Shown: in pieces, positions 1 to 33,263 of the stretch
Position numbering within the stretch: position 1 is the first letter of the stretch
Layout of the letters: every line of letters begins with the position of its first letter
Virus record (IMG/VR): IMGVR_UViG_2913192161_000007
Span: 1-33,263 of that record
DNA length: 33,263 nt
Strand: one strand, 5' to 3'
Origin: a virus
Lineage: Duplodnaviria; Heunggongvirae; Uroviricota; Caudoviricetes
Program-made: the position numbers and the translations under genes
Notes under the pieces: generated by a model
Databases searched by the model: none
What the model was told of the DNA's origin: nothing
Seen by the model: only the letters and a program-made list of their open reading frames with translations

Positions 1-759
1 GTTTTTGTTGACCACTACAGTAATAGTAAGAAGTTGCCACATGAACAGGCAGCGTGTGGAAAGGCTAATGCTGGCTGTTCGCATTGTCTGCATCAGTTGA
101 GGTAGCTGATCCGGTCGAATGCTGGGCATGTTCTTTTTCTGAGGCTTCTCGAAGGCTTTACCGATATTAACGCTGGGAACAGCATCAATAAGCCCTGTGT
201 TTTGGGCGTAGATCATGACCTCATTAATGCGTTGGCACAGGCGACGAACGGTTTCCAGTGCTCCTCTGGCCTGAACTGGTTGGACGGCCTGAACCAGTGT
301 GTGAGCTTTAATATCTGTAACGCTAACGTCGCCAATTGCAGGGAAGACATCTCTTTCAAGAGAGCGCCAGATATCATCGGCATAGTCCTCTGTCACGCTG
401 GCTTTCTTCACATTCCACCATCGTTCAGCCACGAGCTGGAAAGTATTGGTTTTAGCTTCAAGCGAACTGCGAAGTTGTTCTTGCTGATGTTCCTGTGGAT
501 CGATTTGTTTCGCCAGGAGAGAGCGTGACTCTGCCCGATAGTTTCTGGCATCGGCAAGGGTAACTGACGGGTAGGGGCCTATGCTCTTCTTTGCTCGTTT
601 CTTGGTGACAGGACGAATGTAGCGAAACTGCCAGATTTTACTCCCGCTGGATTTGATGAGTAGCTCAAGGCCATCGCCATCATAGAGAGCGTAGTCCGCT
701 TCTTTGGGTTTAGCAGATTCGATTTCCTTAACGGAGAGAGGTTTGGTTTGTCTTGCCAT
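1..759 (-). CDS. P4/CP4-57-type tyrosine integrase, N-terminal part only (gene continues past window start)
   Basis: Minus-strand ATG at 757-759, open to position 1 in that frame (not in ORF track because it lacks a stop inside the window). Translation begins MARQTKPLSVKEIESAKPKEADYALYDGDGLELLIKSSGSKIWQFRY..., the arm-binding N-terminus typical of P4-family integrases found next to tRNA/tmRNA genes. Same orientation as ssrA and directly downstream of the displaced ssrA 3' copy. Confidence 0.75.
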   Translation of the reverse strand, partial: MARQTKPLSVKEIESAKPKEADYALYDGDGLELLIKSSGSKIWQFRYIRPVTKKRAKKSIGPYPSVTLADARNYRAESRSLLAKQIDPQEHQQEQLRSSLEAKTNTFQLVAERWWNVKKASVTEDYADDIWRSLERDVFPAIGDVSVTDIKAHTLVQAVQPVQARGALETVRRLCQRINEVMIYAQNTGLIDAVPSVNIGKAFEKPQKKNMPSIRPDQLPQLMQTMRTASISLSTRCLFMWQLLTITVVVNKN

Positions 760-884
760 TGCCGGGTTTCCATAGTTTTAGGCACCTCGAAAACAATAAA
801 GCTTTACGAGGTGCCTAACAAGGTGCCTAAAAGGTTCGGATTTAATTAGTTGGCATCAGACTTTGCGGGACAAATTCGAGGTAC

Positions 885-916
885 AAAAAAGCCCGCAGGG
901 CTTACGCCGTGCGGGC
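885..916 (-). terminator. Rho-independent terminator downstream of the displaced ssrA 3' end copy (probably the ancestral ssrA terminator)
   Basis: On the minus strand: stem GCCCGCA (916-910) / TGCGGGC (897-891), 12-nt loop, then a T6 run (plus-strand A-run 885-890). Confidence 0.6.
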
Positions 917-963
917 TCTTAGGACTTCATCGGATGACTCTGGTAATCACCGATGGAGAATTT

Positions 964-1007
964 TGGTGAAGCTGGCGGGAGTTGAACCCGCGTCCGAAAT
1001 TCCTACA
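964..1007. repeat. attL core: 44-bp direct copy of the ssrA 3' end
   Basis: tggtgaagctggcgggagttgaacccgcgtccgaaattcctacat matches 32204..32247 at 43 of 44 positions (a at 969 versus g at 32209). Confidence 0.85.
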
Positions 1008-1093
1008 TACCATTTTTACTATAGCAAAAACAGTAGTTTGCATTTAAAAACAGTGCGTTATTGTTATGTAGTGTTTGTCCATTTTACTAATTT

Positions 1094-2164
1094 TTAATGC
1101 GCTGCCGCCAAAGTGCCGCCAACTTCGTTAGGAACTAGAGTTAGTGCTTCAGAAACGTAATCAGCCCATTCCTGCGAAGAAAATGCTTGTAAAGAATAGG
1201 CGTGTTTTCTGAATTTAAACCTCAACTTACCAACATATAAGTAATTATAAATGTTGTCGTAATGTGGTATATCTTCATTATATATCAAACGAATTAGTTT
1301 TCTTGATAGAAGATATGATATTTCTAAAATATCGGCGAATACTTGTTCTTCAAGTGTAAATGTTTTTAATTGATACCCATCATATTTTATCAAACAGTAT
1401 ACATGAGATATGGGGGATGTACATATCAGGTCTAATAACGAGGCTGTATTATATGACAAAGTGTTAAGTCGAATCATGTAACTTAATGGATTATATTCAT
1501 CTATAGAGTGTTGAACCGACAGAGTATTATTAATTGTGTTTAAGTACTCCTTTAATTGCACTAAAAAATCAGGGCTTGCGGTGAAGTTAGATGTGGTCTC
1601 TATAGTTGATTTGTTGTATATTTTTGTATATAAAAGATATGGGTTGGAAATTTTAATTTCATCTGCTGTAAACAAAGTGATATTTGGTTCGCCATTGAAT
1701 TTAATGAGGTTTCCATCTGAGCCTCTCGCGCTTTGAAGATTGTAGGCGAATATTTCCTTTGTTTTCTCAATAAAGTTTTTCTCATGTGCTAAATATCTAT
1801 CGACTGCATTTTTCGTTTCAGCGGTGTTGATCTGAGCTTCGGTTTGTATAGTGCGATGTATATTGTTGACGATCGAAGCCAAAGGAACTGCACTAGCTAG
1901 CAATAGTAGAGGGAATTTGCTTATTTCGTAAAATCTTGAATAGCCATGTGCGGAGAGTACTGGTTCTTTTCCCCACCATGTGAAAAAACCAAAATAGATA
2001 AAGGAAAATAAAGGTGTTAAAACTGAAATCCAAAATAATTTCTGACGAAATAAATTTCTTTTATCAAGCATGTACCATTTTTTTACTATTGTAATAAATA
2101 CTAATAAAACGATTGCTGCAATATAAATCACTGTATAACAAGTATCACTTAACATGATTTTCAC
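1094..2164 (-). CDS. Hypothetical polytopic membrane protein, AT-rich cargo gene (unknown function)
   Basis: 356-aa ORF. GTG at 2162-2164 overlaps the int stop codon (alternative ATG at 2153-2155). Three hydrophobic N-terminal segments (IYIAAIVLLVFITIV, ISVLTPLFSFIYFGFFTWW, FPLLLLASAVPLASIV) then an Asn/Tyr/Ile-rich soluble region. Base composition visibly far more AT-rich than flanking phage genes. Confidence 0.6.
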   Translation of the reverse strand: MKIMLSDTCYTVIYIAAIVLLVFITIVKKWYMLDKRNLFRQKLFWISVLTPLFSFIYFGFFTWWGKEPVLSAHGYSRFYEISKFPLLLLASAVPLASIVNNIHRTIQTEAQINTAETKNAVDRYLAHEKNFIEKTKEIFAYNLQSARGSDGNLIKFNGEPNITLFTADEIKISNPYLLYTKIYNKSTIETTSNFTASPDFLVQLKEYLNTINNTLSVQHSIDEYNPLSYMIRLNTLSYNTASLLDLICTSPISHVYCLIKYDGYQLKTFTLEEQVFADILEISYLLSRKLIRLIYNEDIPHYDNIYNYLYVGKLRFKFRKHAYSLQAFSSQEWADYVSEALTLVPNEVGGTLAAAH

Positions 2165-3177
2165 TCAATATAATTTAAAGGATTCTTAGTTACTGCATCT
2201 TCTAAGTGTTCTGGTGAAAAATGAGAATAGATCATCGTCATTTTTATATCGGCATGGCCCAGAATATCGCGCAGCACCAGTATGTTTCCGCCATTCATCA
2301 TAAAATGGCTGGCGAATGTATGACGTAGCACGTGAGTGCATTGGCCCTCTGGCAGCTCGATGCCAGCTCGCTTTACTGCTCGTTCAAAGGCTTTTCTGCA
2401 CGGGGTGAATAGCTTCCCTCTGTTCTTGGGGAGTTCGTCATACAGATCTTGAGATATCGGCACGGTGCGGTTTTTCTTACCCTTCGTCTTGGTATAAGTG
2501 ATGCGGTATTTAGATAACTGATGGCCCTGCAGGTTTTCGGCTTCACTCCAGCGTGCGCCGGTGGCCAGGCATATTTTTGCAATCAAAAGCAGACTGGGGT
2601 TTTGAGAATCAGCGCAGGCATCTAGCAGACGTTTAATTTCTTCCGAGGTCAGGAACGCCAGTTCCCCCTCAGCGATTTTAAATGTTGGCAGCCCGGCGAG
2701 AGGATTTGGTGCTGACCAGTGGCCTAGTTTTTTCAATGTGCCGAAAACCGATGATAGGTTACGTTGCTCAAGATTCACCGTGCGTGGTTTTACTGGCGAC
2801 ATTAGTGTGCCGTCTTCGTTACGAACGTCACCTTTTAACCGTGCTTCGCGGTATTTCGTAAAGTCACCGGCTGTCAGTTCTGAGGCGATGGGGTCGCCTA
2901 GACCATTACAGATAATTCTAAGTTTCGCCATGAGGCGCTTGGGGTCTGCGAGTGTCTGACCATACAGGGAATACCAAAGCTCAATTAATTCTGATAGGCG
3001 TCGCCGATCATCCTTTTCACCCAACCACGGTTTTTTATTCACTTCTTCCATTGTGAAGCTTTCAAAAGCAATGGCTTCGCCTTTCGTAGCAAATTGCTTA
3101 CGCACGCGCTTACCATTGCGTCCATTGGGATAGCACTCACACAACCATTTTCCGTTCGGCTGTTTTCTGATGGTCAT
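2161..3177 (-). CDS. int: Phage integrase, tyrosine recombinase (P2/186 Int family)
   Basis: 338 aa. Catalytic-type motifs ARWSE, HVLRHTF and MTMIYSHF near the C-terminus. Adjacent to attL, downstream of cI on the same strand. Confidence 0.9.
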   Translation of the reverse strand: MTIRKQPNGKWLCECYPNGRNGKRVRKQFATKGEAIAFESFTMEEVNKKPWLGEKDDRRRLSELIELWYSLYGQTLADPKRLMAKLRIICNGLGDPIASELTAGDFTKYREARLKGDVRNEDGTLMSPVKPRTVNLEQRNLSSVFGTLKKLGHWSAPNPLAGLPTFKIAEGELAFLTSEEIKRLLDACADSQNPSLLLIAKICLATGARWSEAENLQGHQLSKYRITYTKTKGKKNRTVPISQDLYDELPKNRGKLFTPCRKAFERAVKRAGIELPEGQCTHVLRHTFASHFMMNGGNILVLRDILGHADIKMTMIYSHFSPEHLEDAVTKNPLNYIE

Positions 3178-3178
3178 A

Positions 3179-3811
3179 TCAAAGGCTCTTAATGATTTTC
3201 AGTGCGCGGCCTACTACCTCAATGTCATCTAGGCCACACTCAAACGATGAATCATCCTGATGTACTACTAATTTGTTTCCCGGGAGTCGAGTCAATTTAA
3301 CAATGCTTTTTATCCCGTCGATATCGACTAACCACATACCATTTACTGGTGGTGTTTGGTTGCGATCTATTAAATAAGAATCACCAGAAGTAGTCACCAG
3401 CAGTAGGTTGCTTGAGTCTGAGGGGAGTATGCTGCTATCAATGATTGCTTTTCCAGCATCGATCAATAAACCACCGTTGAGAGTCGCCTTGTCAATTTCA
3501 GGAGATACTAGTTCAGAAAGAGGTATAACCTTGCTGGAGTTCACGGAATTGATATTTTTTTGGGGTTCAATGTTTGAACCTGGCTCCCCCTGTCCGGTGG
3601 TTAGCCACAGTAAAGAAACTCCTGTTTCCAAGGCGCACTGAATCACCCACTCTGCAGGAAAACTATCTCTTAAGTATCTGTTTGCCATGGTGCTTTTTGA
3701 TGCGCCTAAGTGATCGCAAAGTTGCTGTCTGGACTTGAAATCATAGGCTGCCATTAGTCTATGGATAGCCTCTCTTCCCCCTGTATTCTCTCCAACCTTT
3801 ACATGTATCAT
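3179..3811 (-). CDS. cI: CI-type immunity repressor (N-terminal HTH, C-terminal domain with S24-peptidase-like motifs)
   Basis: 210 aa. HTH-like SRQQLCDHLGASKSTMANRY. C-terminal SGDSY followed by IKSIVKLTRLPGNKLVV resembles the Ser/Lys region of LexA-type folds. Divergent from apl/cII and tightly coupled to int. Confidence 0.75.
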   Translation of the reverse strand: MIHVKVGENTGGREAIHRLMAAYDFKSRQQLCDHLGASKSTMANRYLRDSFPAEWVIQCALETGVSLLWLTTGQGEPGSNIEPQKNINSVNSSKVIPLSELVSPEIDKATLNGGLLIDAGKAIIDSSILPSDSSNLLLVTTSGDSYLIDRNQTPPVNGMWLVDIDGIKSIVKLTRLPGNKLVVHQDDSSFECGLDDIEVVGRALKIIKSL

Positions 3812-4205: not shown

Positions 4206-4715
4206 ATGTTTGATTATAAGATTTCCAAACACCCGCATTTTGATGAAGCCTGTAGAGCTTTTGCACTTCGTCACAATATGGCGAAGCTGGCAGAACGTGC
4301 AGGAATGAATGTCCAGACTCTGCGAAACAAACTCAACCCAGATCAACCGCATCAGCTCAATGCGCCAGAAATCTGGCTGCTTACCGATCTGACTGAAGAT
4401 TCAACGCTGATAGATGGTTTTCTGGCACAGATTCACTGCCTGCCATGTGTACCGATTAATGAGGTAGCAAAAGAGAAACTGCCGCATTACGTCATGAGTG
4501 CAACCGCAGAGATCGGGCGTGTTGCTGCAGGTGCGGTATCTGGCGATGTAAAAACCAGTGCCGGTCGTCGTGATGCCATCAGCAGCATTAATTCTGTAAC
4601 ACGACTGATGGCGCTGGCGGCTGTTTCATTGCAGGCCCGTTTACAGGCTAACCCTGCGATGGCGAGTGCAGTTGATACTGTGACTGGCCTCGGTGCTTCA
4701 TTCGGTTTGCTGTGA
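4206..4715 (+). CDS. cII: CII-like lysogeny-establishment activator (186 CII family)
   Basis: 169 aa. N-terminus MFDYKISKHPHFDEACRAFALRHNMAKLAERAGMNVQTLRNKLNPDQPH matches my recollection of 186 CII and its exact length. RBS aagggggt. Confidence 0.7.
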   Translation: MFDYKISKHPHFDEACRAFALRHNMAKLAERAGMNVQTLRNKLNPDQPHQLNAPEIWLLTDLTEDSTLIDGFLAQIHCLPCVPINEVAKEKLPHYVMSATAEIGRVAAGAVSGDVKTSAGRRDAISSINSVTRLMALAAVSLQARLQANPAMASAVDTVTGLGASFGLL

Positions 4716-6006: not shown

Positions 6007-6860
6007 GCACCATCCTGAAATGGGCGGGAAATAAAACCGCCATAATGTCCGAACTGAAAAAGCATCTTCCTGCTGGCCCGCGACTGGTTGAACCTTTCGC
6101 GGGTTCCTGTGCAGTGATGATGGAGACGGATTACCCCAGCTATCTTGTTGCGGATATTAATCCTGATTTAATCAACCTCTATAAAAAGGTTGCTGCTGAT
6201 TGTGAGGCGTTTATATCTCGTGCCAGAGCTTTATTTGAGGAAGCAAACAGGGAGGTGGCTTATTACAACATAAGGCAGGAGTTTAATTACTCCACTGAAA
6301 TTACTGATTTCATGAAAGCGGTATATTTCCTGTATCTCAATCGTCACGGTTACCGTGGTTTATGTCGCTATAACAAGAGCGGGCATTTCAACATTCCCTA
6401 CGGTAATTATAAAAATCCGTATTTCCCTGAAAAAGAAATTCGCGCATTTGCAGAAAAGGCCCAGCGAGCAACGTTTATCTGCGCCAGCTTTGATGAAACG
6501 CTGGCGATGTTGAAGGCGGGGGATGTGGTGTATTGCGATCCGCCGTATGACGGTACGTTTTCCGGCTATCACACTGACGGCTTCACTGAAGATGACCAGT
6601 ATCACCTGGCATCTGTTCTTGAACATCGGTCATCAGAAGGACATCCGGTCATTGTTTCTAACAGTGACACATCCCTGATCCGTTCGCTGTATCGCAATTT
6701 TACTCACCACTACATCAAGGCAAAACGCAGCATCGGTGTGGCAGCTGGCGAGGGTAAATCAGCAACAGAAATCATTGCTGTTTCCGGGCCGCGCTGCTGG
6801 GTGGGATTTGATTATTCGCGTGGCGTGGACAGTTCTGCCGTGTACGGAGTACGTGCATGA
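6003..6860 (+). CDS. dam: DNA adenine methyltransferase (Dam-like, GATC class)
   Basis: N-terminal LKWAGNK, FAGSCAV and catalytic DPPY, with overall similarity to E. coli Dam. ATG 6003 with RBS ggaggtg; overlaps both neighbours by 4 nt. Confidence 0.85.
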
Positions 6861-9271
6861 GTCATGCCGATATGAACAACTGCTGCGGCTTTAACGAGGC
6901 TGCCGCAGCATTCTCATGGAACAGCCCGAAAAAGGCCATTAACCCTTATCTGGACCCGGCGGAAGTTGCGCCGGTTTCTGCGCTTTCAAACCTGATCACT
7001 CTGTACGCTGCCGATAACGAGCAGGAACAACTGCGCCGCGAGGCACTGAGTGATCAGGTCTGGGAGCGTTATTTCTTTAATGAATCCCGTGATCCTGTCC
7101 AGCGCGAAATGGAGCAGGATAAGCTAATTAGCCGGGCAAAGCTGGCGCATGAGCAGCAGCGTTTTAATCCGGACATGGTCATTCTGGCGGATGTCAACGC
7201 TCAGCCTTCCCATATCAGCAAGCCGCTGATGCAACGTATTAAATACTTCAGCAGCCTGGGCAGGCCAAAGGCTTATTCCCGCTATTTACGTGAGACGATT
7301 AAGCCATGTCTGGAACGACTGGAGCATGTACGCGACAGTCAGCTATCTGCATCTTTTCGCTTTATGGCAAGCCATGAAGGGCTGGACGGCCTGCTGATCC
7401 TGCCTGAAATGAGTCAGGATCAGGTGAAACGCCTGTCCACCCTGGTAGCTGCGCATATGAGTATGTGCCTTGATGCAGCTTGTGGTGATTTGTATGCCAC
7501 CGATGACGTTAAGCCAGAAGAAATCCGCAAGACATGGGAAAAGGTGGCAGCGGAAACCCTGCGTCTGGATGTCATCCCACCTGCGTTTGAGCAACTCCGT
7601 CGGAAAAGAAACCGCCGTAAACCCGTGCCCTATGAACTCATTCCGGGTTCGCTGGCGCGTATGTTGTGCGCCGACTGGTGGTATCGGAAATTATGGAAGA
7701 TGCGTTGCGAATGGCGGGAAGAGCAGTTGCGCGCTGTTTGCCTGGTCAGCAAAAAAGCATCTCCTTATGTCAGCTATGAAGCCGTGATGCATAAACGTGA
7801 GCAGCGCCGTAAGTCGCTGGAGTTTTTCCGTTCTCATGAACTGGTGAACGAAGACGGCGACACGCTGGACATGGAGGATGTGGTAAACGCCAGCAGCAGC
7901 AACCCTGCGCATCGCCGCAATGAGATGATGGCCTGTGTTAAAGGTCTGGAGCTTATCGCGGAAATGCGCGGTGACTGCGCCGTTTTCTACACTATCACCT
8001 GTCCGTCGCGTTTCCATTCCACGCTAAATAACGGCAGACCAAACCCGACCTGGACAAACGCGACGGTAAGACAAAGCAGCGATTATCTGGTCGGCATGTT
8101 TGCTGCATTTCGTAAGGCGATGCACAAAGCCGGGTTGCGCTGGTATGGCGTGCGGGTGGCTGAGCCGCATCATGATGGCACAGTTCACTGGCACCTGTTG
8201 TGTTTCATGCGCAAAAAAGACCGCCGTGCCATCACTGCATTACTGCGTAAGTTTGCCATCCGTGAAGACCGCGAGGAGCTGGGCAATAACACTGGGCCGC
8301 GCTTTAAGTCTGAGTTGATTAACCCGCGCAAAGGAACGCCGACAAGCTACATCGCGAAATATATCAGTAAGAACATTGACGGTCGTGGTCTGGCTGGCGA
8401 GATCAGCAAGGAAACGGGTAAATCTCTGCGTGATAACGCTGAATACGTGAATGCCTGGGCGTCTCTGCATCGTGTTCAGCAATTCCGCTTCTTTGGTATT
8501 CCGGGGCGTCAGGCTTACCGTGAACTTCGCTTGCTGGCTGGTCAGGCGGCAAGGCAACAGGGTGACAAAAAAGCAGGTGCGCCGGTACTGGATAACCCGC
8601 GTCTTGATGCCATTCTGGCTGCTGCTGATGCTGGTTGTTTTGCCACCTACATCATGAAGCAGGGCGGCGTACTGGTACCCCGTAAATATCACCTCATCAG
8701 AACCGCTTATGAAATCAACGAAGAGCCGACCGCCTATGGCGATCACGGCATTCGTATTTATGGCATCTGGTCACCCATTGCAGAGGGCAAGATCTGCACT
8801 CATGCAGTGAAGTGGAAAATGGTTCGTAAAGCCGTTGACGTTCAGGAGGCGGCAGCCGACCAGGGCGCTTGCGCCCCTTGGACTCGTGGCAATAACTGTC
8901 CCCTTGCTGAAAATTTGAACCAACCGGAGAAAGACAAATCAGCTGATGGGGATACCAGAACGGATATCACCCGCATGGATGACAAAGAGTTGCACGAATA
9001 CCTGCACAGTATGAGCAAAAAAGAGCGCCGGGAACTGGTAGCAAGGTTACGCCTGGTTAAACCGAAACGGCGTAAAGACTACAAACAGCGAATTACAGAC
9101 CATCAGCGACAACAGCTCGTCTATGAGCTGAATTCCAGAGGATTTGATGGCAGCGAGAAAGAGGTCGATTTGCTCCTTCGCGGTGGCAGTATTCCGTCAG
9201 GAGCAGGCCTGCGTATCTTCTATCGGAACCAGCGTTTGCAGGAAGATGATAAGTGGCGGAACCTGTATTAA
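6857..9271 (+). CDS. A: Replication initiation protein (P2 A-like rolling-circle nickase)
   Basis: 804 aa. HxH-type motif [10 protein letters not shown] and active-site Tyr motif YIAKYISK. Position after the early operon. Confidence 0.85.
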
Positions 9272-11241: not shown

Positions 11242-12285
11242 TCAGCCTCGTTTGCCCTTAAGTCCTAAATCATAAGCTTCAAAACGGATCACCTCTTTAT
11301 CCAGCCAGCCATTCAGCTCCTGCAGTCGCTTTTGCAGTGGCATCAGTTCATTGCGGACGAAGACACGGCTCGCTTTTTCCACATCACCAAAGCCGCCAGT
11401 GTTGTTGGGAATGATGCCCATCATTTGCGGCGGTACGCGGTGAGCCGCCATCATGTCATCGCGGCTGACGTTCTTGATGTTCAGAAATTCATCCTTCGCC
11501 GCGACTTCCGACAACGGGATAATCTGAATGCCATCTTTTTTGCCGTTAGGCGAGTACATAAACAGGTTGCGGAAGTTGCCCGGTCCTTTAGCACTTTTCA
11601 TTGCCTTGCGGATGTTATTCACATCCTCCTGGTTCTGCGCGGCGTCGGTCATGTACATGATGAAGCCTGCATGACTGCCGTTAATGTAATACTTGCGGCG
11701 GAACAGCGTGGCAGACTCGTTGAGCAGGGCGGATGGAATAGCAGAAAGATAGCCGGGCAGGCCGTAGATCTCCTGATTAATGTCAGGTTCCATCAGATGA
11801 AAAATGCTGCCTTTCGTGAACTGATACGGTTGTGTGGTCATGCCATATTGCACAAACCAGTATGTTTCAAGGTCAAGCCCGCGCCGGGTGTATTTTGCCA
11901 GTGCAGGCTCCAGTGAAATAACTTCACCGAAACGGTTCGTGCGTTTCTCCAGGTAGGCGTTACCAAAAACCAGATAGTCCTGCACAAAACGGGTAAATGC
12001 CTGCTGGCTGAGAAGGCGATGTGGAATATAGGTACTGCTGATAATGTCACGCTTAACACTGATCGGGGAGCTGTGGTGCACGGCGGCGCGGAAGGTGCGC
12101 GCCAGTCCGTCAAAGCTGACGGGCGGCTCATACCAGCGATCCATCTGTACGCATTCCACATAGTCCAGCAGTTCGCGGCGGTCCAGTACAGGAATGGGAT
12201 CACCAAAGCTGAAAGCCTCCGCAACGGATTTTTTAGTTTCTTCTGCAGTTACGGTTTCGCCTGGCGCGATATGTTCTTTCATCAA
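11242..12285 (-). CDS. Q: Portal protein (P2 gpQ-like)
   Basis: 347 aa, immediately downstream of and overlapping the terminase large subunit. Size and position match P2 Q. Confidence 0.85.
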   Translation of the reverse strand: MMKEHIAPGETVTAEETKKSVAEAFSFGDPIPVLDRRELLDYVECVQMDRWYEPPVSFDGLARTFRAAVHHSSPISVKRDIISSTYIPHRLLSQQAFTRFVQDYLVFGNAYLEKRTNRFGEVISLEPALAKYTRRGLDLETYWFVQYGMTTQPYQFTKGSIFHLMEPDINQEIYGLPGYLSAIPSALLNESATLFRRKYYINGSHAGFIMYMTDAAQNQEDVNNIRKAMKSAKGPGNFRNLFMYSPNGKKDGIQIIPLSEVAAKDEFLNIKNVSRDDMMAAHRVPPQMMGIIPNNTGGFGDVEKASRVFVRNELMPLQKRLQELNGWLDKEVIRFEAYDLGLKGKRG

Positions 12286-14048
12286 AAAATCTCCACAATA
12301 TTGCTGGTATTGGCGGACTCGCCCTGCAGCGGTTCGTTAAACAGTGCGTGCATTGTTGCCCAGGCCAGATCGGCATGGCTGGCTTCTTCGCTGCGGCTGG
12401 CTTCATAGGTCGGGCGGTTGCCGCTGGCGGTGGTGGCGCGACGGATTGCCATAAATGACTGCGCAATGTCGGTGTGTCCGGCGTCAAACTCCAGACGACG
12501 GTGGCTGATAATGTCGTAGGCCTTGAGTACCAGGGCGTTTTTAACGTTGGGGTTGTAGACAAACTCCCGGACGGCAGGAAAGAACGCTTTCACGTTCTCG
12601 TAAACCCCGTGACCGACACCTGTCGAGTCGATGCCGATATAGGTCACGTTGTACTGTTCGGTCAGTTTTTTGATGGCGTCCGCCTGGGCGCGAAAGTCCA
12701 TCCCGCGCCACTGGTGACGCTCAAGAATGCGGAACTTACCACCCGGCACGGCTGGCGGTGCCACCACCACGCATCCGGCGCTGTCGCCGTTTTGCGTACC
12801 TTTTGCCGGGTCATAACCGATCCACACTTCGCGCCAGCCAAATGGGCGCAGGGCCAGTGCATGAAAGTCGGTCCAGACTTCCCAGCTGTCCACCATGCAT
12901 GCCTGCAGCTCGCTGAGCGGGAACACGGACGCGAGATCGTCCACAAACTCGCACATCAGCAGGTTCTGGTATTCGTCCGGGCTGTACTCCATGCGTAGCT
13001 GGTCGAGGTCGAACAGGTTACAGCCGCCGCGCACCGCATCTTCCACGGTGACTATCTGGCGGTACTGCCCGTCTGCGCACAGCAGGCCGGGGGCCAGATT
13101 GCTGTGGGACAGGTCGATGTCCACCTTGTCGGCTTTGTTGCGCCCACGGTTGAACAGCGCACCGGACCAGAACGGATAAGCACTATGGGTCAGGCTGGAT
13201 GGCGTGGAAAAATAGGTCTGTCGCCATTTCTTGTGAATAGCCATACCGGAAGCCACTTTACGCAGCTCCTGGAATTTCGGGATCCAGAAATATTCATCCA
13301 GATACAGGTTACCGTGATAACTCTGGGCTGTGCGGGCATTGGTGCCGAGGAAGTAAAGCGTGGCCCCGTTAGGAAGCACCATCGGATCGCCTTTCAGCTC
13401 CACCTCCACTTCTTTGGCAAAGTCGATGATGTACTGTTTAAAGACGTGGGCCTGTGCCTTACTGGCGGAAAGGAAAATCTGGTTACGTCCGGTCAGCAGG
13501 GCGTCAATCAGGGCTTCACGGGCAAAGTAAAAGGTCGCGCCGATCTGGCGTGACTTCAGCAGGTTGCGGATGCGGTTGGTTTTTCCGGCTTCCCACCAGT
13601 GGCGCTGGTAGTTGAACATGGAGGAATGGAAGATTTCTTCCAGCTTCTCAATCTGTTCATCGGTGAAAACATTCTTTTCCGGCTGACGGCGTGGGCCTTT
13701 GTTGCGGTTGGCGATGTTAGGGTTTAAGTCGGCTTCGTTGCCGCCATTGTTAAACTTGCCGATCCGCGCGTGGCGCTCCGACTGGCGCGCCAGCAGGTCA
13801 ATCTCTTTGAAATCTTTCCCTTCTTTGTGCTCCTTCATAATGAGCTGGCAGTAGCGTGCGGCGGTGGTGAGCTGCATCTGATCCAGCGGCCCATAGTCAC
13901 CCCACTTGTCGCGTTTTTTCCAGCTGTGAACGGTTGCAACTTTCTCGCCCAGCATTTCAGCAATGCGGGCGACGCGGTATCCCTGAAAGTACAGCAGCAT
14001 GGCCTGCCGACGGGGATCGAGATCTGCGGGTGTCAGTGTGGTGTTCAT
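12282..14048 (-). CDS. P: Terminase large (ATPase) subunit (P2 gpP-like)
   Basis: 588 aa, divergent from the O-N-M-L operon. Size and position match P2 P. Confidence 0.85.
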   Translation of the reverse strand: MNTTLTPADLDPRRQAMLLYFQGYRVARIAEMLGEKVATVHSWKKRDKWGDYGPLDQMQLTTAARYCQLIMKEHKEGKDFKEIDLLARQSERHARIGKFNNGGNEADLNPNIANRNKGPRRQPEKNVFTDEQIEKLEEIFHSSMFNYQRHWWEAGKTNRIRNLLKSRQIGATFYFAREALIDALLTGRNQIFLSASKAQAHVFKQYIIDFAKEVEVELKGDPMVLPNGATLYFLGTNARTAQSYHGNLYLDEYFWIPKFQELRKVASGMAIHKKWRQTYFSTPSSLTHSAYPFWSGALFNRGRNKADKVDIDLSHSNLAPGLLCADGQYRQIVTVEDAVRGGCNLFDLDQLRMEYSPDEYQNLLMCEFVDDLASVFPLSELQACMVDSWEVWTDFHALALRPFGWREVWIGYDPAKGTQNGDSAGCVVVAPPAVPGGKFRILERHQWRGMDFRAQADAIKKLTEQYNVTYIGIDSTGVGHGVYENVKAFFPAVREFVYNPNVKNALVLKAYDIISHRRLEFDAGHTDIAQSFMAIRRATTASGNRPTYEASRSEEASHADLAWATMHALFNEPLQGESANTSNIVEIF

Positions 14049-29705: not shown

Positions 29706-30187
29706 TGATGGTGCTGGGATTGTACGTGTTTATGCTGCGCACCGTACCGTATCAGGAGCTGCAGTATCAACGCAGCTGGCGACATGCGGCAAACAGTCGG
29801 GTAAATCGTCGTCCGTCCACGCAGTTTCTGGGACCGGACAACGACATGCTGACGCTTTCCGGTGTTCTTATGCCGGAGATAACAGGCGGCAGGCTGTCGT
29901 TGCTGGCACTAGAGCAGATGGCAGAACAGGGGAAAGCATGGCCCCTGATTGAAGGCAGCGGCACGATTTACGGCATGTATGTGATTGAGGGACTGAATCA
30001 GACTAAAACGGAGTTTTTCCGCGACGGTATGCCGCGCCGGATTGAGTTCACCCTGTCGCTCAAACGGGTGGATGAATCCCTGTCCGATATGTTCAGTGAT
30101 CTCAGTGCGCAACTGAATAATCTGCAGGAAACGGCAACATCTGCTTTAGGCGATATCAGTAAAACGGTGGGAGGGCTGTTGTCGTGA
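29702..30187 (+). CDS. U: Tail protein U
   Basis: 161 aa, overlaps T stop (ATGA); P2 order T-U-D. Confidence 0.8.
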   Translation: MMMVLGLYVFMLRTVPYQELQYQRSWRHAANSRVNRRPSTQFLGPDNDMLTLSGVLMPEITGGRLSLLALEQMAEQGKAWPLIEGSGTIYGMYVIEGLNQTKTEFFRDGMPRRIEFTLSLKRVDESLSDMFSDLSAQLNNLQETATSALGDISKTVGGLLS

Positions 30188-31284
30188 ATTTCAGCTCTGA
30201 ACTGCTTAACAAAGGCAACAAAACTCCGGCATTCAGCATCAGTATTGAAGGCAAGGATATCACCACTGTGCTGGACAACCGCCTGATGGGGCTTACGCTG
30301 ACGGATAACCGGGGCTTTGAAGCGGACCAGCTTGATCTGGAACTGGATGATGCCGACGGAAAAATCGTGCTGCCGCGTCGTGGTGCGGTCATTACGCTGG
30401 CGCTGGGCTGGAAAGGGCAGCCACTTTTCCCGAAAGGGGCATTCACGGTGGATGAAATTGAACACACTGGCGCACCGGACCGCCTGACTATCCGGGCGCG
30501 AAGTGCTGATTTTCGGGAAACGCTGAATACCCGCCGTGAAAAGTCGTGGCACAAGACCACCGTTGGGGAAGTGGTGAAGGAAATAGCTGCGCGGCACAAA
30601 CTGAAGATGGCACTGGGTAAAGACCTGTCGGATAAGCCCGTGGAGCATATAGACCAGACTAATGAGAGTGACGGCAGTTTTTTGATGCGGCTGGCGCGCC
30701 AGTACGGTGCTATTGCGTCGGTGAAAAATGGCAATCTGTTATTCATCCGGCAGGGACAGGGCAAAAGCGCCAGCGGTAAACCTCTGCCGGTGATCACTAT
30801 CACACGTAAGGACGGCGACAGTCACCGCTTTACCCTGGCGGATCGCGGAGCCTACACGGGCGTCATTGCCAGCTGGTTGCATACCCGCGAACCTGCGAAG
30901 AAAGAAAGCACTACAGTGAAGCGTAAGCGCAGGACCAAGAAGCAGAAGAAAGAGCCGGAAGCGAAGCAGGGCGATTACCTGGTGGGGACGGATGAAAACG
31001 TGCTGGTACTTAATCGCACTTATGCCAACCGGAGCAACGCCGAACGAGCGGCAAAAATGCAGTGGGAACGCCTGCAACGCGGTGTTGCGTCATTCTCGCT
31101 GCAACTGGCAGAAGGACGGGCAGATCTTTATACGGAAATGCCTGTAAAAGTCAGTGGCTTTAAACAGCCGATAGATGATGCGGAATGGACGATTACGACT
31201 CTGACACATACCGTCAGCCCGGATAACGGTTTTACGACCAGTATTGAACTTGAAGTGAAAATTGATGATCTTGAAATGGAATAA
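30184..31284 (+). CDS. D: Tail protein D
   Basis: 366 aa, GTG start overlapping the U stop. Confidence 0.8.
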   Translation: MNFSSELLNKGNKTPAFSISIEGKDITTVLDNRLMGLTLTDNRGFEADQLDLELDDADGKIVLPRRGAVITLALGWKGQPLFPKGAFTVDEIEHTGAPDRLTIRARSADFRETLNTRREKSWHKTTVGEVVKEIAARHKLKMALGKDLSDKPVEHIDQTNESDGSFLMRLARQYGAIASVKNGNLLFIRQGQGKSASGKPLPVITITRKDGDSHRFTLADRGAYTGVIASWLHTREPAKKESTTVKRKRRTKKQKKEPEAKQGDYLVGTDENVLVLNRTYANRSNAERAAKMQWERLQRGVASFSLQLAEGRADLYTEMPVKVSGFKQPIDDAEWTITTLTHTVSPDNGFTTSIELEVKIDDLEME

Positions 31285-31579: not shown

Positions 31580-31602
31580 ACCTGCTACGGCAGGTTTTTA
31601 TT
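31580..31602. terminator. Hairpin terminator between convergent ogr and the WYL/BRCT gene (possibly bidirectional)
   Basis: Stem ACCTGC / GCAGGT with loop TACG, followed by TTTTTATT on the plus strand; a weaker T-rich tract follows on the minus strand. Overlaps the stop codon of the minus-strand gene. Confidence 0.55.
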
Positions 31603-32080
31603 CATCTGGGATCTCACCTGTTTCAAGAAAATGTATAAAGCCAGGCTCATCTATGATGATAGTGCCTTTCATCCTTGCTGCCGATACTTTTGATGGGCCT
31701 GCATTGTAACCGCAGCAGAGCATCTGAAGGTTTTGGGTTACAGAGGTTCTTACCGTTAATCCTTGTTCATTCGCCTTATCAACCAACCTTTCTTTATCTG
31801 CTTTCTTAAATCCGGTGAAACATACATCGAATGTATTTTTTTTCGGGCCAGACGGCTTAGTGAGATGTGAGTAGTTTTCGGGGAGGAATGTCTCGCATTC
31901 CTGAATGGCTTGTTCTTGTGAATCGTATTGTTTAAGAATGCGGTCTTTTCGGAAGGTTTTTATTCGGTCGGTGTTCTTACAAATGCCCTGTATATGATTT
32001 TCGCTATAACTGATGCTCTGTATTGAGTGAACACCGATACGACCATTTGCATTGATGTAAACAAAGTGAAGTTCTTCCAT
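31598..32080 (-). CDS. Hypothetical protein with WYL-like N-terminal motif and BRCT-like C-terminal domain (cargo gene next to attR)
   Basis: 160 aa, RBS aagagg 6 nt upstream of ATG. N-terminal TDRIKTFRKDRIL resembles the R-x-F-R-x-D-R-I core of WYL domains. C-terminal VCFTGFKK...GLTVRTSVTQNLQMLCCGYNAGPSKVSAARMKGTIIIDEPGFIHFL lines up with the LigA-type BRCT pattern (V-x-TG ... SVSKKT ... AG-SK ... A ... G ... IDE ... F). Moderately AT-rich. Confidence 0.65.
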   Translation of the reverse strand: MEELHFVYINANGRIGVHSIQSISYSENHIQGICKNTDRIKTFRKDRILKQYDSQEQAIQECETFLPENYSHLTKPSGPKKNTFDVCFTGFKKADKERLVDKANEQGLTVRTSVTQNLQMLCCGYNAGPSKVSAARMKGTIIIDEPGFIHFLETGEIPDE

Positions 32081-32106
32081 GTGAAACCTCTTGGCTTGAT
32101 TTCAAG

Positions 32107-32145
32107 ATGGCGACAGGCAAGACGGACGCAAAACTCTGTCGCCAT
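32107..32145. promoter_or_regulatory. Perfect 10-bp inverted repeat (ATGGCGACAG ... CTGTCGCCAT) upstream of the WYL/BRCT gene; candidate operator
   Basis: Arms at 32107-32116 and 32136-32145 separated by 19 bp, with an extra direct copy of TGTCGCC at 32148-32154. Lies between the gene start (32080) and the ssrA 3' end. Confidence 0.5.
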
Positions 32146-32164
32146 TTTGTCGCCACTACCAAAG

Positions 32165-32199
32165 AAAAAGGGGCTACGCCTTCACGTAACCCCTTGATT
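32165..32199 (-). terminator. Possible phage-supplied terminator just downstream of the ssrA 3' end
   Basis: Minus strand: AAGGGG - 16-nt loop - CCCCTT followed by TTTTT. Short stem and large loop, so weak. Confidence 0.35.
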
Positions 32200-32203
32200 T
32201 ATT

Positions 32204-32247
32204 TGGTGGAGCTGGCGGGAGTTGAACCCGCGTCCGAAATTCCTACA
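32204..32247. repeat. attR core (3'-terminal 44 nt of ssrA)
   Basis: Direct repeat of 964..1007 (43/44 identical); here it is the functional 3' end of tmRNA ending ...GCTCCACCA. Confidence 0.85.
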
Positions 32248-32566
32248 TCCTCGGTACTACATGCTTAGTCAGTCTTTACATTCGCTTGCCAGCTGCGGAC
32301 AGACACGCCACTAACAAACTAGCCTGATTAAGTTTTAACGCTTCAACCCCAGGCAGGGCTTCCACGCGATCTCTTTTGGGTTTGACCTCTCTTGATCCCC
32401 GTCCTAAGAGCGGAGGCTAGGGAGAGAGGGCTCTAAGCAGGTTATTAAGCTGCTAAAGCGTAGTTTTCGTCGTTTGCGACTATTTTTTGCGGCTTTTTAC
32501 GAGGCCAACCGCCCCTCGGCATGCACCTTGGGTTTCGCAAATCCCGTCGAATCCAGAATCAGCCCC
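32204..32566 (-). ncRNA. ssrA: tmRNA (SsrA), complete
   Basis: 363 nt on the minus strand, GGGGCTGATTCTGGATTCGACGGG ... tRNA-like 3' end ...GGTTCAACTCCCGCCAGCTCCACCA. Internal tag-coding region present. Downstream of smpB on the same strand. Confidence 0.95.
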
Positions 32567-32780
32567 AATGTGTAACGTTAAGTATACCAGATTTTTGAGC
32601 GCCATGACTAGCCCCAAAGGCGTTATCATCCTGGAATTAGCGCCTGCATAGTATGATTTTTCTTCGATTAAGCAATGGGATGGCTACATCAGTGTCAGAT
32701 TTGACAGTCGACAAGATGTTCATTCGCGCCGCCGGATAGGGAGGCGCGGTGAAGATTTGATTAGTATCGCTTATATAGGT

Positions 32781-33263
32781 TTAACGGTGCGCATTTTTCA
32801 TGATACGTGCTTTATCAACCTGCCATTCACGTTCTTTGATATCAGAACGTTTATCGTGTTGTTTCTTACCTTTCGCGACGCCGATTTTTACTTTGCACCA
32901 GGCATTTTTCCAGTACAGGGAGAGCGCTACTACGGTATAACCTTCACGGTTCACTCGGCCATAGAGAGAGTCAAGTTCGCGCTGGTTGAGAAGCAGTTTG
33001 CGGGTGCGAGTAGGGTCGCACACCACGTGCGTGGAAGCCACTGCCATCGGCGTGATGTTTGCTCCAAACAGGAACGCTTCTCCGTCGCGCAGAAGGACAT
33101 AGCTGTCGCTAATATTGGCTTTTCCTGCGCGCAGGGATTTAACTTCCCAGCCTTGCAGGGCAAGTCCCGCTTCGAACTCTTCTTCAATAAAGTATTCGTG
33201 ACGGGCGCGCTTGTTAAGCGCGATGGTCGCTGAACCAGGTTTATGTGCTTTTTTCTTCGTCAT
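32781..33263 (-). CDS. smpB: SsrA-binding protein SmpB
   Basis: 160 aa, [70 protein letters not shown]... matches enterobacterial SmpB. Start codon at the last three bases of the window. Confidence 0.95.

Follow-up and report, generated by a model that had tools for sequence, protein, structure and literature searches.

According to the standard tDNA mechanism, a phage carries the 3' part of its target gene and regenerates that gene on integration (PMC4383910). The tmRNA gene is the most enriched target in Islander, which records 125 tandem arrays among 3919 islands; in such arrays an intact tDNA is accompanied by a displaced 3' fragment for each element, with an integrase gene beside each fragment. 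Two described systems come closest to the locus studied here. The Salmonella phages Fels-2 and SopEPhi integrate into ssrA, as attributed to Pelludat et al. (2003) in a passage of PMC3448106. In Escherichia coli K-12, CP4-57 (intA, alpA) lies after the 3' end of ssrA, and its excision deletes T357 of ssrA and inactivates tmRNA (PMC10107115).

We analysed a 33,263-nt stretch of DNA (the window) in which elements of both kinds were found at one ssrA gene. Tandem occupancy of ssrA by a 186-like prophage and an element with a CP4-57/P4-type integrase is real: the prophage sits between an intact ssrA and the integrase fragment, as the initial annotation had proposed, and the repeat, the terminator, the integrase start and ssrA all lay at most one base from where that annotation had placed them (Table 1). 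By Islander-type criteria, the intact target tDNA at one end is the full-length tmRNA gene, the first element owns the displaced, direct-orientation tDNA fragment together with the phage integrase gene, and of the second element an IntA-type integrase gene is present up to codon 247, where an IS breaks it at base 19/20. The second element is known here from this integrase fragment and its flank; any island body would lie left of the window, as would its distal ssrA-derived fragment of 14-15 nt (CCGCCAGC[T]CCACCA). The locus does not differ in kind from the tandem arrays of Islander, and is distinguished by the IS-disrupted second integrase and by a distal fragment that would fall outside the window. 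The arrangement is the textbook pattern (Islander; "Traffic at the tmRNA gene"), an ordinary instance of something already known. We hold with high confidence that two integrative elements arrayed in tandem at the tmRNA gene, with the anatomy, order of arrival, decay and IS cut described below, best explain the whole window.

Table 1. Features of the ssrA locus, with positions in the window.
Feature	Position	Strand	Remarks
Right terminal inverted repeat TGTAGTGGTCAACAAAAAC of IS911-like IS3-family element	1-19	-	Element continues beyond the window
P4/CP4-57 IntA-type tyrosine integrase gene, 5' part	20-759	-	Codons 1-246 + 2 nt; IS-truncated
Three TTAGGCACC copies just upstream of the integrase start	778-786 (inverted), 810-818, 822-830	-	
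Island-borne intrinsic terminator	~885-918	-	Terminator scan match 903-889; RNAfold hairpin, then T-run
Displaced ssrA 3'-end copy at the int-proximal prophage junction, with a969	962-1008	-	46/47 identical to 32202-32248
Fels-2/SopEPhi-type 186-like Peduoviridae prophage	1009-32201		31,193 bp
Prophage cargo ORF	1094-2164	-	356 aa
Prophage int	2161-3177		
Prophage cI	3179-3811		
Prophage cII	4206-4715		
Prophage gpA	6857-9271		
Prophage terminase	12282-14048		
Prophage gpD	30184-31284		
Last phage gene before ssrA	31598-32080	-	160 aa
Phage-borne intrinsic terminator, now 3' of the functional ssrA	32168-32195	-	12-pair hairpin + T-run; also in free-phage attP flank
Intact ssrA (tmRNA, tag ANDENYALAA)	32204-32566	-	ARAGORN; Rfam RF00023 full-length, 295.7 bits
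smpB	32781-33263	-	160-aa product identical to common E. coli SmpB

The anatomy was read directly from the DNA. On the minus strand, leftwards from the displaced copy, we found a 45-nt spacer, a hairpin with a T-run after it, the three TTAGGCACC motifs and an ATG at 759, from which the reading frame is open to the window edge. The rho-independent terminator and the integrase start that had been reported on the ssrA strand left of attL were thus both present. The same annotation had expected this arrangement directly downstream of ssrA in strains with a CP4-57-like element, in agreement with K-12 and with the phage-free E. coli JX2, where the same terminator and integrase are found. Because the spacer, terminator and integrase directly follow the intact ssrA in these two strains, the terminator is part of the island and not ancestral chromosome, and it serves as the ssrA terminator wherever the island abuts ssrA. 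Island-free strains carry another sequence downstream of ssrA, and then csiD. At the other end of the prophage, the last ~45 nt of ssrA fall inside the 47-nt identity block 32202-32248. At base 32301, position 266 of the ssrA gene, the window departs from each of the six E. coli loci compared.

The element between the two ssrA copies belongs with Fels-2 and SopEPhi. Its integrase was identified by PF24624 and PF00589 and is 92.0% identical to Fels-2 Int and 91.3% identical to SopEPhi Int. Pfam analysis of the prophage returned Phage_CI_repr, Phage_CI_C, Phage_CP76, Phage_GPA, a gpP-type terminase domain (Terminase_5) and Phage_GPD; a tape-measure protein is also encoded, and Phage_186_Fil is present in relatives with an identical Int. 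A 186-type CI/CII switch is combined with P2-type replication and morphogenesis genes. The prophage shares with Fels-2 and SopEPhi its Int clade, the ssrA target, the 186-type lysis-lysogeny module and the P2-type replication and structural genes, but differs from them in its host, probably a non-coli Escherichia, and in the cargo at the int-att junction, an ORF without a family. Its early region is 93-95% identical at the nucleotide level to Klebsiella and Escherichia Peduoviridae, and the nearest sequenced phages by DNA are the Klebsiella Kp48xx phages and Escherichia phage Cartapus (genus Elveevirus). The prophage looks complete. Its relationship to a free attP was demonstrated by Cartapus, whose free-genome attP consists of the window's right prophage end (including the hairpin 32168-32195), the 47-nt core and the left prophage end.

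The cargo ORF occupies a typical moron position between int and the att junction, and its product has a hydrophobic N-terminus. Pfam and PADLOC scans of the cargo ORFs gave no usable family, with none assigned to the 356-aa product, and this protein had no exact match on record. At the same place, Cartapus carries a gene for a RES-domain protein, and L001, a lysogen whose phage arm is related, has two different hypothetical genes there. The final phage gene ahead of ssrA gave a sub-threshold BRCT match and a weak PADLOC match to PDC-S48; its relatives are annotated as BRCT domain protein in RefSeq and as putative exonuclease in Cartapus.

Left of the displaced copy, the integrase N-terminus had been likened to CP4-57 IntA, and its residues 1-247 proved to be 85% identical to K-12 IntA. 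They are identical at 246/247 positions (99%) to the full-length, 413-aa integrase of JX2, whose gene is located directly after ssrA. Two Pfam domains were found in the fragment, Arm-DNA-bind_3 (PF13356; 2.3e-21) and Phage_int_M (PF22022; 1.4e-24); the catalytic domain PF00589 with the active-site tyrosine was absent from the readable frame within the window. The gene lies just 3' of the ssrA-derived core and on the same strand, the layout of K-12 and JX2. At the three positions upstream of its start, JX2 has the identical TTAGGCACC motif and K-12 CP4-57 has a TAGGCCCA-type motif; the motif appears to co-vary with the integrase allele, and its copies are likely candidates for arm-type or autoregulatory integrase sites. 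The island thus resembles CP4-57 in its position and strand after the ssrA 3' end, its downstream flank, its terminator and the triple motif upstream of int. It differs in the integrase allele, the repeat motif and the IS cut, and also in that it no longer abuts the functional ssrA, so that its excision could not alter tmRNA.

Only the 19-nt tip of the IS lies inside the window, and several observations bear on its identity. Homology of the integrase to every listed relative ends at base 20. Of the E. coli matches to bases 1-1100, the best 30 all start at query base 20, 22 or 26, never earlier, and bases 1-19 together with the integrase had no match among complete E. coli genomes (30 best matches listed). 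In the gene-sense alignment, ...CTTACTATTAC is followed by CCGCCCTGCCGAAGC in intact relatives and by TGTAGTGGTCAACAAAAAC in the window, and after residue 247 the frame enters the IS repeat (VVVNKN...) where relatives have RPAEAA. The repeat starts with TG at the break in target homology (base 19/20), and the 19-mer occurs exactly in 34 IMG/VR contigs, each time at the border of variable flanks and a conserved IS interior. The matching IS elsewhere is ~1250 bp long and has its orfA and orfB encoded on the opposite strand; its annotation reads IS3 family transposase with programmed frameshift, and of 5426 complete E. coli genomes, 4697 have at least a partial match to its interior. The right end (IRR) of IS911 has been published as TGAAGTGGTCAACAAAAACTGGCC... 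(PMC2909936). The terminal 19 nt of the window match it at 18/19, and the size, the orfA/orfB organization and the programmed frameshift of the related copies are also those of IS911, but position 3 is T, not A, and what matches in E. coli genomes is an IS911 relative rather than IS911 proper.

The homology break, the IS-end matches and the similarity to the IS911 IRR thus indicated that codon 247 has most probably received an IS911-like element behind its second base, ahead of the part encoding the catalytic domain. With an interior of the common type, the integrase frame would stop 11 codons further on. The junction itself is observed in the window; its string was absent from GTDB representative genomes, IMG/VR and JGI metagenomes. 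The same IS right end abuts homologous P4-type integrases at three different codons, namely ~247 in the window, ~54 in L003 (1605-1623) and ~141 in the IMG/VR contig L023 (9920-9938), where the IS stands in the opposite orientation. This suggests recurrent IS hits on this P4-type integrase family. An integrase of this type is also split by an IS3-family element in L044, with both halves kept; identity of that element with the window IS was considered and rejected, the two being different IS3-family elements.

We infer that the insertion abolishes integrase activity. The product encoded in the window is predicted not to be a functional integrase, and the older island would be unable to excise on its own, because the IS at codon 247 takes the catalytic domain out of frame. 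The initial annotation had suspected that the lost link to an intact ssrA may affect excision of the island. This loss is not the main obstacle, since the displaced fragment keeps, apart from one change, the whole 15-nt CP4-57-type core; the IS-cut integrase is the more direct reason for the probable immobility of the older island. The annotation had also counted a leftward ORF that did not continue as an integrase against its own reading. Taken literally, the ORF indeed stops being an integrase at bases 1-19, where the IS stands, but the 247 residues are unambiguous and the tandem reading holds.

The IS junction also admits the reading that no older island is left: the integrase stub would be a relic after IS-mediated deletion, and ssrA would hold one element plus debris. 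Such a relic would be consistent with the visible gene, of which 740 nt end in the IS, and with L023, where a homologous integrase gene runs into the same IS and its other half was not found in the stretch examined; in addition, L042, L043 and L046 carry decayed, integrase-less remnants after the same phage. Against this, simple IS insertions that split the integrase and keep both halves also occur (L044), and no sign of deletion was seen in the window. We regard a relic as unlikely, though a serious possibility, and prefer an IS-cut older island.

The map alone does not give the order in which the two elements arrived, since an island entering the displaced fragment of the phage would yield the same map. 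We infer the order from identity levels. The int-proximal phage DNA (1009-2164) is 99.7-99.9% identical to that of ten E. coli lysogens with an identical integrase, whereas E. coli loci share only 91-95% identity with the host backbone, which argues for a recent arrival of the phage. Two further observations favour the phage as the newcomer. First, the island integrase region reaches only 97.4% identity with its best match, and it has acquired an IS. Second, ssrA directly followed by this integrase type is common: the integrase type lies beside an ssrA end in 675 of 5426 complete E. coli genomes, counted where at least 80% of the query was covered by a match, and the majority of the matches listed extend over ssrA itself. 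It is therefore likely that the island was there first. The earlier proposal that the phage inserted upstream of a pre-existing island stands as far as the tandem position is concerned, and the priority of the island that it took for granted is likely on these identity levels.

In the reverse order, the phage would have entered an island-free ssrA first, and a CP4-57-type island would later have entered the displaced 47-nt fragment. The resulting map would be indistinguishable from the one observed, the displaced fragment holds the full 15-nt CP4-57 core, and a lysogen of the same phage with native downstream DNA exists (L038). This order is harder to reconcile with phage arms nearly identical to those of E. 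coli prophages beside a host backbone that is 5-8% diverged, and with an island integrase region that has diverged from its best match and had time enough to acquire an IS. An ssrA-island without the phage is, moreover, by far the commoner state, as the 675 genomes indicate. We consider the reverse order improbable and retain the phage as the newcomer.

Other genomes with the same phage show what can lie behind it. A P4-type integrase stands directly behind the phage at five of the ten sampled sites with an identical phage integrase (L037, L039, L040, L044, L045), one of the five being the IS-split copy of L044; at other sites, native csiD or an autotransporter remnant adjoins the phage. The junction of island terminator, fragment and phage arm is covered to at least 80% by 10 complete E. 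coli genomes whose phage arms are related. Behind the phage in L037 and L045 stands a true P4-like satellite (Psu, Ogr/Delta, AlpA, Ash, primase), and a helper-type phage and a satellite share the ssrA locus there.

With the phage as the newcomer, the following history is proposed. A CP4-57-type island with a P4-family integrase would first have taken over the last ~15 nt of ssrA and given the gene its downstream flank and terminator. A Fels-2/SopEPhi-type phage would then have recombined its attP, a 47-nt copy of the ssrA 3' end with the phage's own terminator, with the intact gene. The functional ssrA now ends in phage sequence and the phage terminator, and its former 3' end lies 31.2 kb away, heading the old island. 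The displaced copy, released from selection, has gained the transition a969 (C358U), and the IS911-like element has cut the integrase of the old island at codon 247, by which the island would have lost excision under its own power.

The 47-nt direct repeat differs between its two copies at a single position, a969/g32209. In tmRNA numbering this is C358U, which lies inside the 15-nt CP4-57 core CCGCCAGCTCCACCA of the K-12 annotation. The Cartapus attP has g at the variable position. In eleven other lysogens (the ten with an identical integrase protein and L001), the displaced copy is an intact, g-bearing sequence in seven and shows a different decay in four, with a in none. A 29-mer with the a variant was absent, with or without flank, from IMG/VR (2.9 million viral contigs) and from JGI metagenomes. 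The base is private to the window in this comparison and appears to be a transition that arose by later drift in a copy no longer under selection. The initial annotation had offered two meanings for the difference, a mark that localises the crossover or later drift; the one-base difference is there and drift is favoured, but the crossover meaning is not. If the difference had been inherited from attP or attB, it would mark the strand-exchange point of the phage integrase, and one mismatch between att copies could in principle delimit a crossover. However, since neither the attP nor any lysogen copy has a, both att parents would have had g, and together with the database searches this makes an inherited difference extremely improbable. 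The displaced fragments of L040-L043 (~locus position 12170-12207) show other 3'-end decay, such as a T357 deletion like that at the distal att of K-12 CP4-57; this decay reflects earlier rounds of island traffic at the locus.

That the left repeat is an unrelated chance match, with the element not bounded by ssrA sequence, is excluded, because the next-longest repeat in the window has only 28 nt at 79% identity, the 46/47 repeat falls precisely on the two ends of a phage with the same core in its free attP, and the junction recurs in many genomes.

The G3-U357 pair is the alanine identity pair of tmRNA, and C358U adjoins position 357. The ssrA gene of the window is intact, and the interposed phage shields it from excision of the old island. 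Excision of the phage itself would rejoin ssrA to the displaced fragment and would install U358 if the exchange takes place 5' of position 358. Because the phage carries the whole 47-nt block, its crossover is probably near the 5' edge of the block. Curing the phage might thus transfer C358U into tmRNA. A further step would be that stacking rewires the tmRNA excision switch, with prophage loss placing U358 in the acceptor stem encoded by the sole tmRNA gene, possibly weakening the tmRNA and favouring retention of the prophage; we consider this very doubtful.

The host was examined through the chromosomal DNA beside ssrA. The smpB DNA is ~8% diverged from E. coli, and the differences are clustered, being densest at 32928-33063 (~16% over 136 nt) and falling to ~1% in the last 200 nt. 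The divergence of smpB points to a non-coli Escherichia host or to a recombinant segment. The ssrA-smpB segment (32204-33263) shares no more than 95.4% identity with the E. coli loci compared, and over 32000-33263 none of the complete E. coli genomes rises above 95.6%, whereas the best backbone matches, Escherichia whittamii and Escherichia sp. E1V33, both reach 97.7%; E. coli was therefore rejected as the host. The host is probably a cryptic-clade Escherichia, with a tentative species call from 1 kb of backbone.

The value of these results lies mainly in a correct annotation of the locus, and the current understanding of ssrA as a target is unchanged. The window illustrates the decay of displaced elements, through a base change in the orphaned att copy and the interruption of the integrase by an IS. 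It also illustrates how ssrA gathers elements serially, each newcomer giving the gene a fresh 3' end and terminator.
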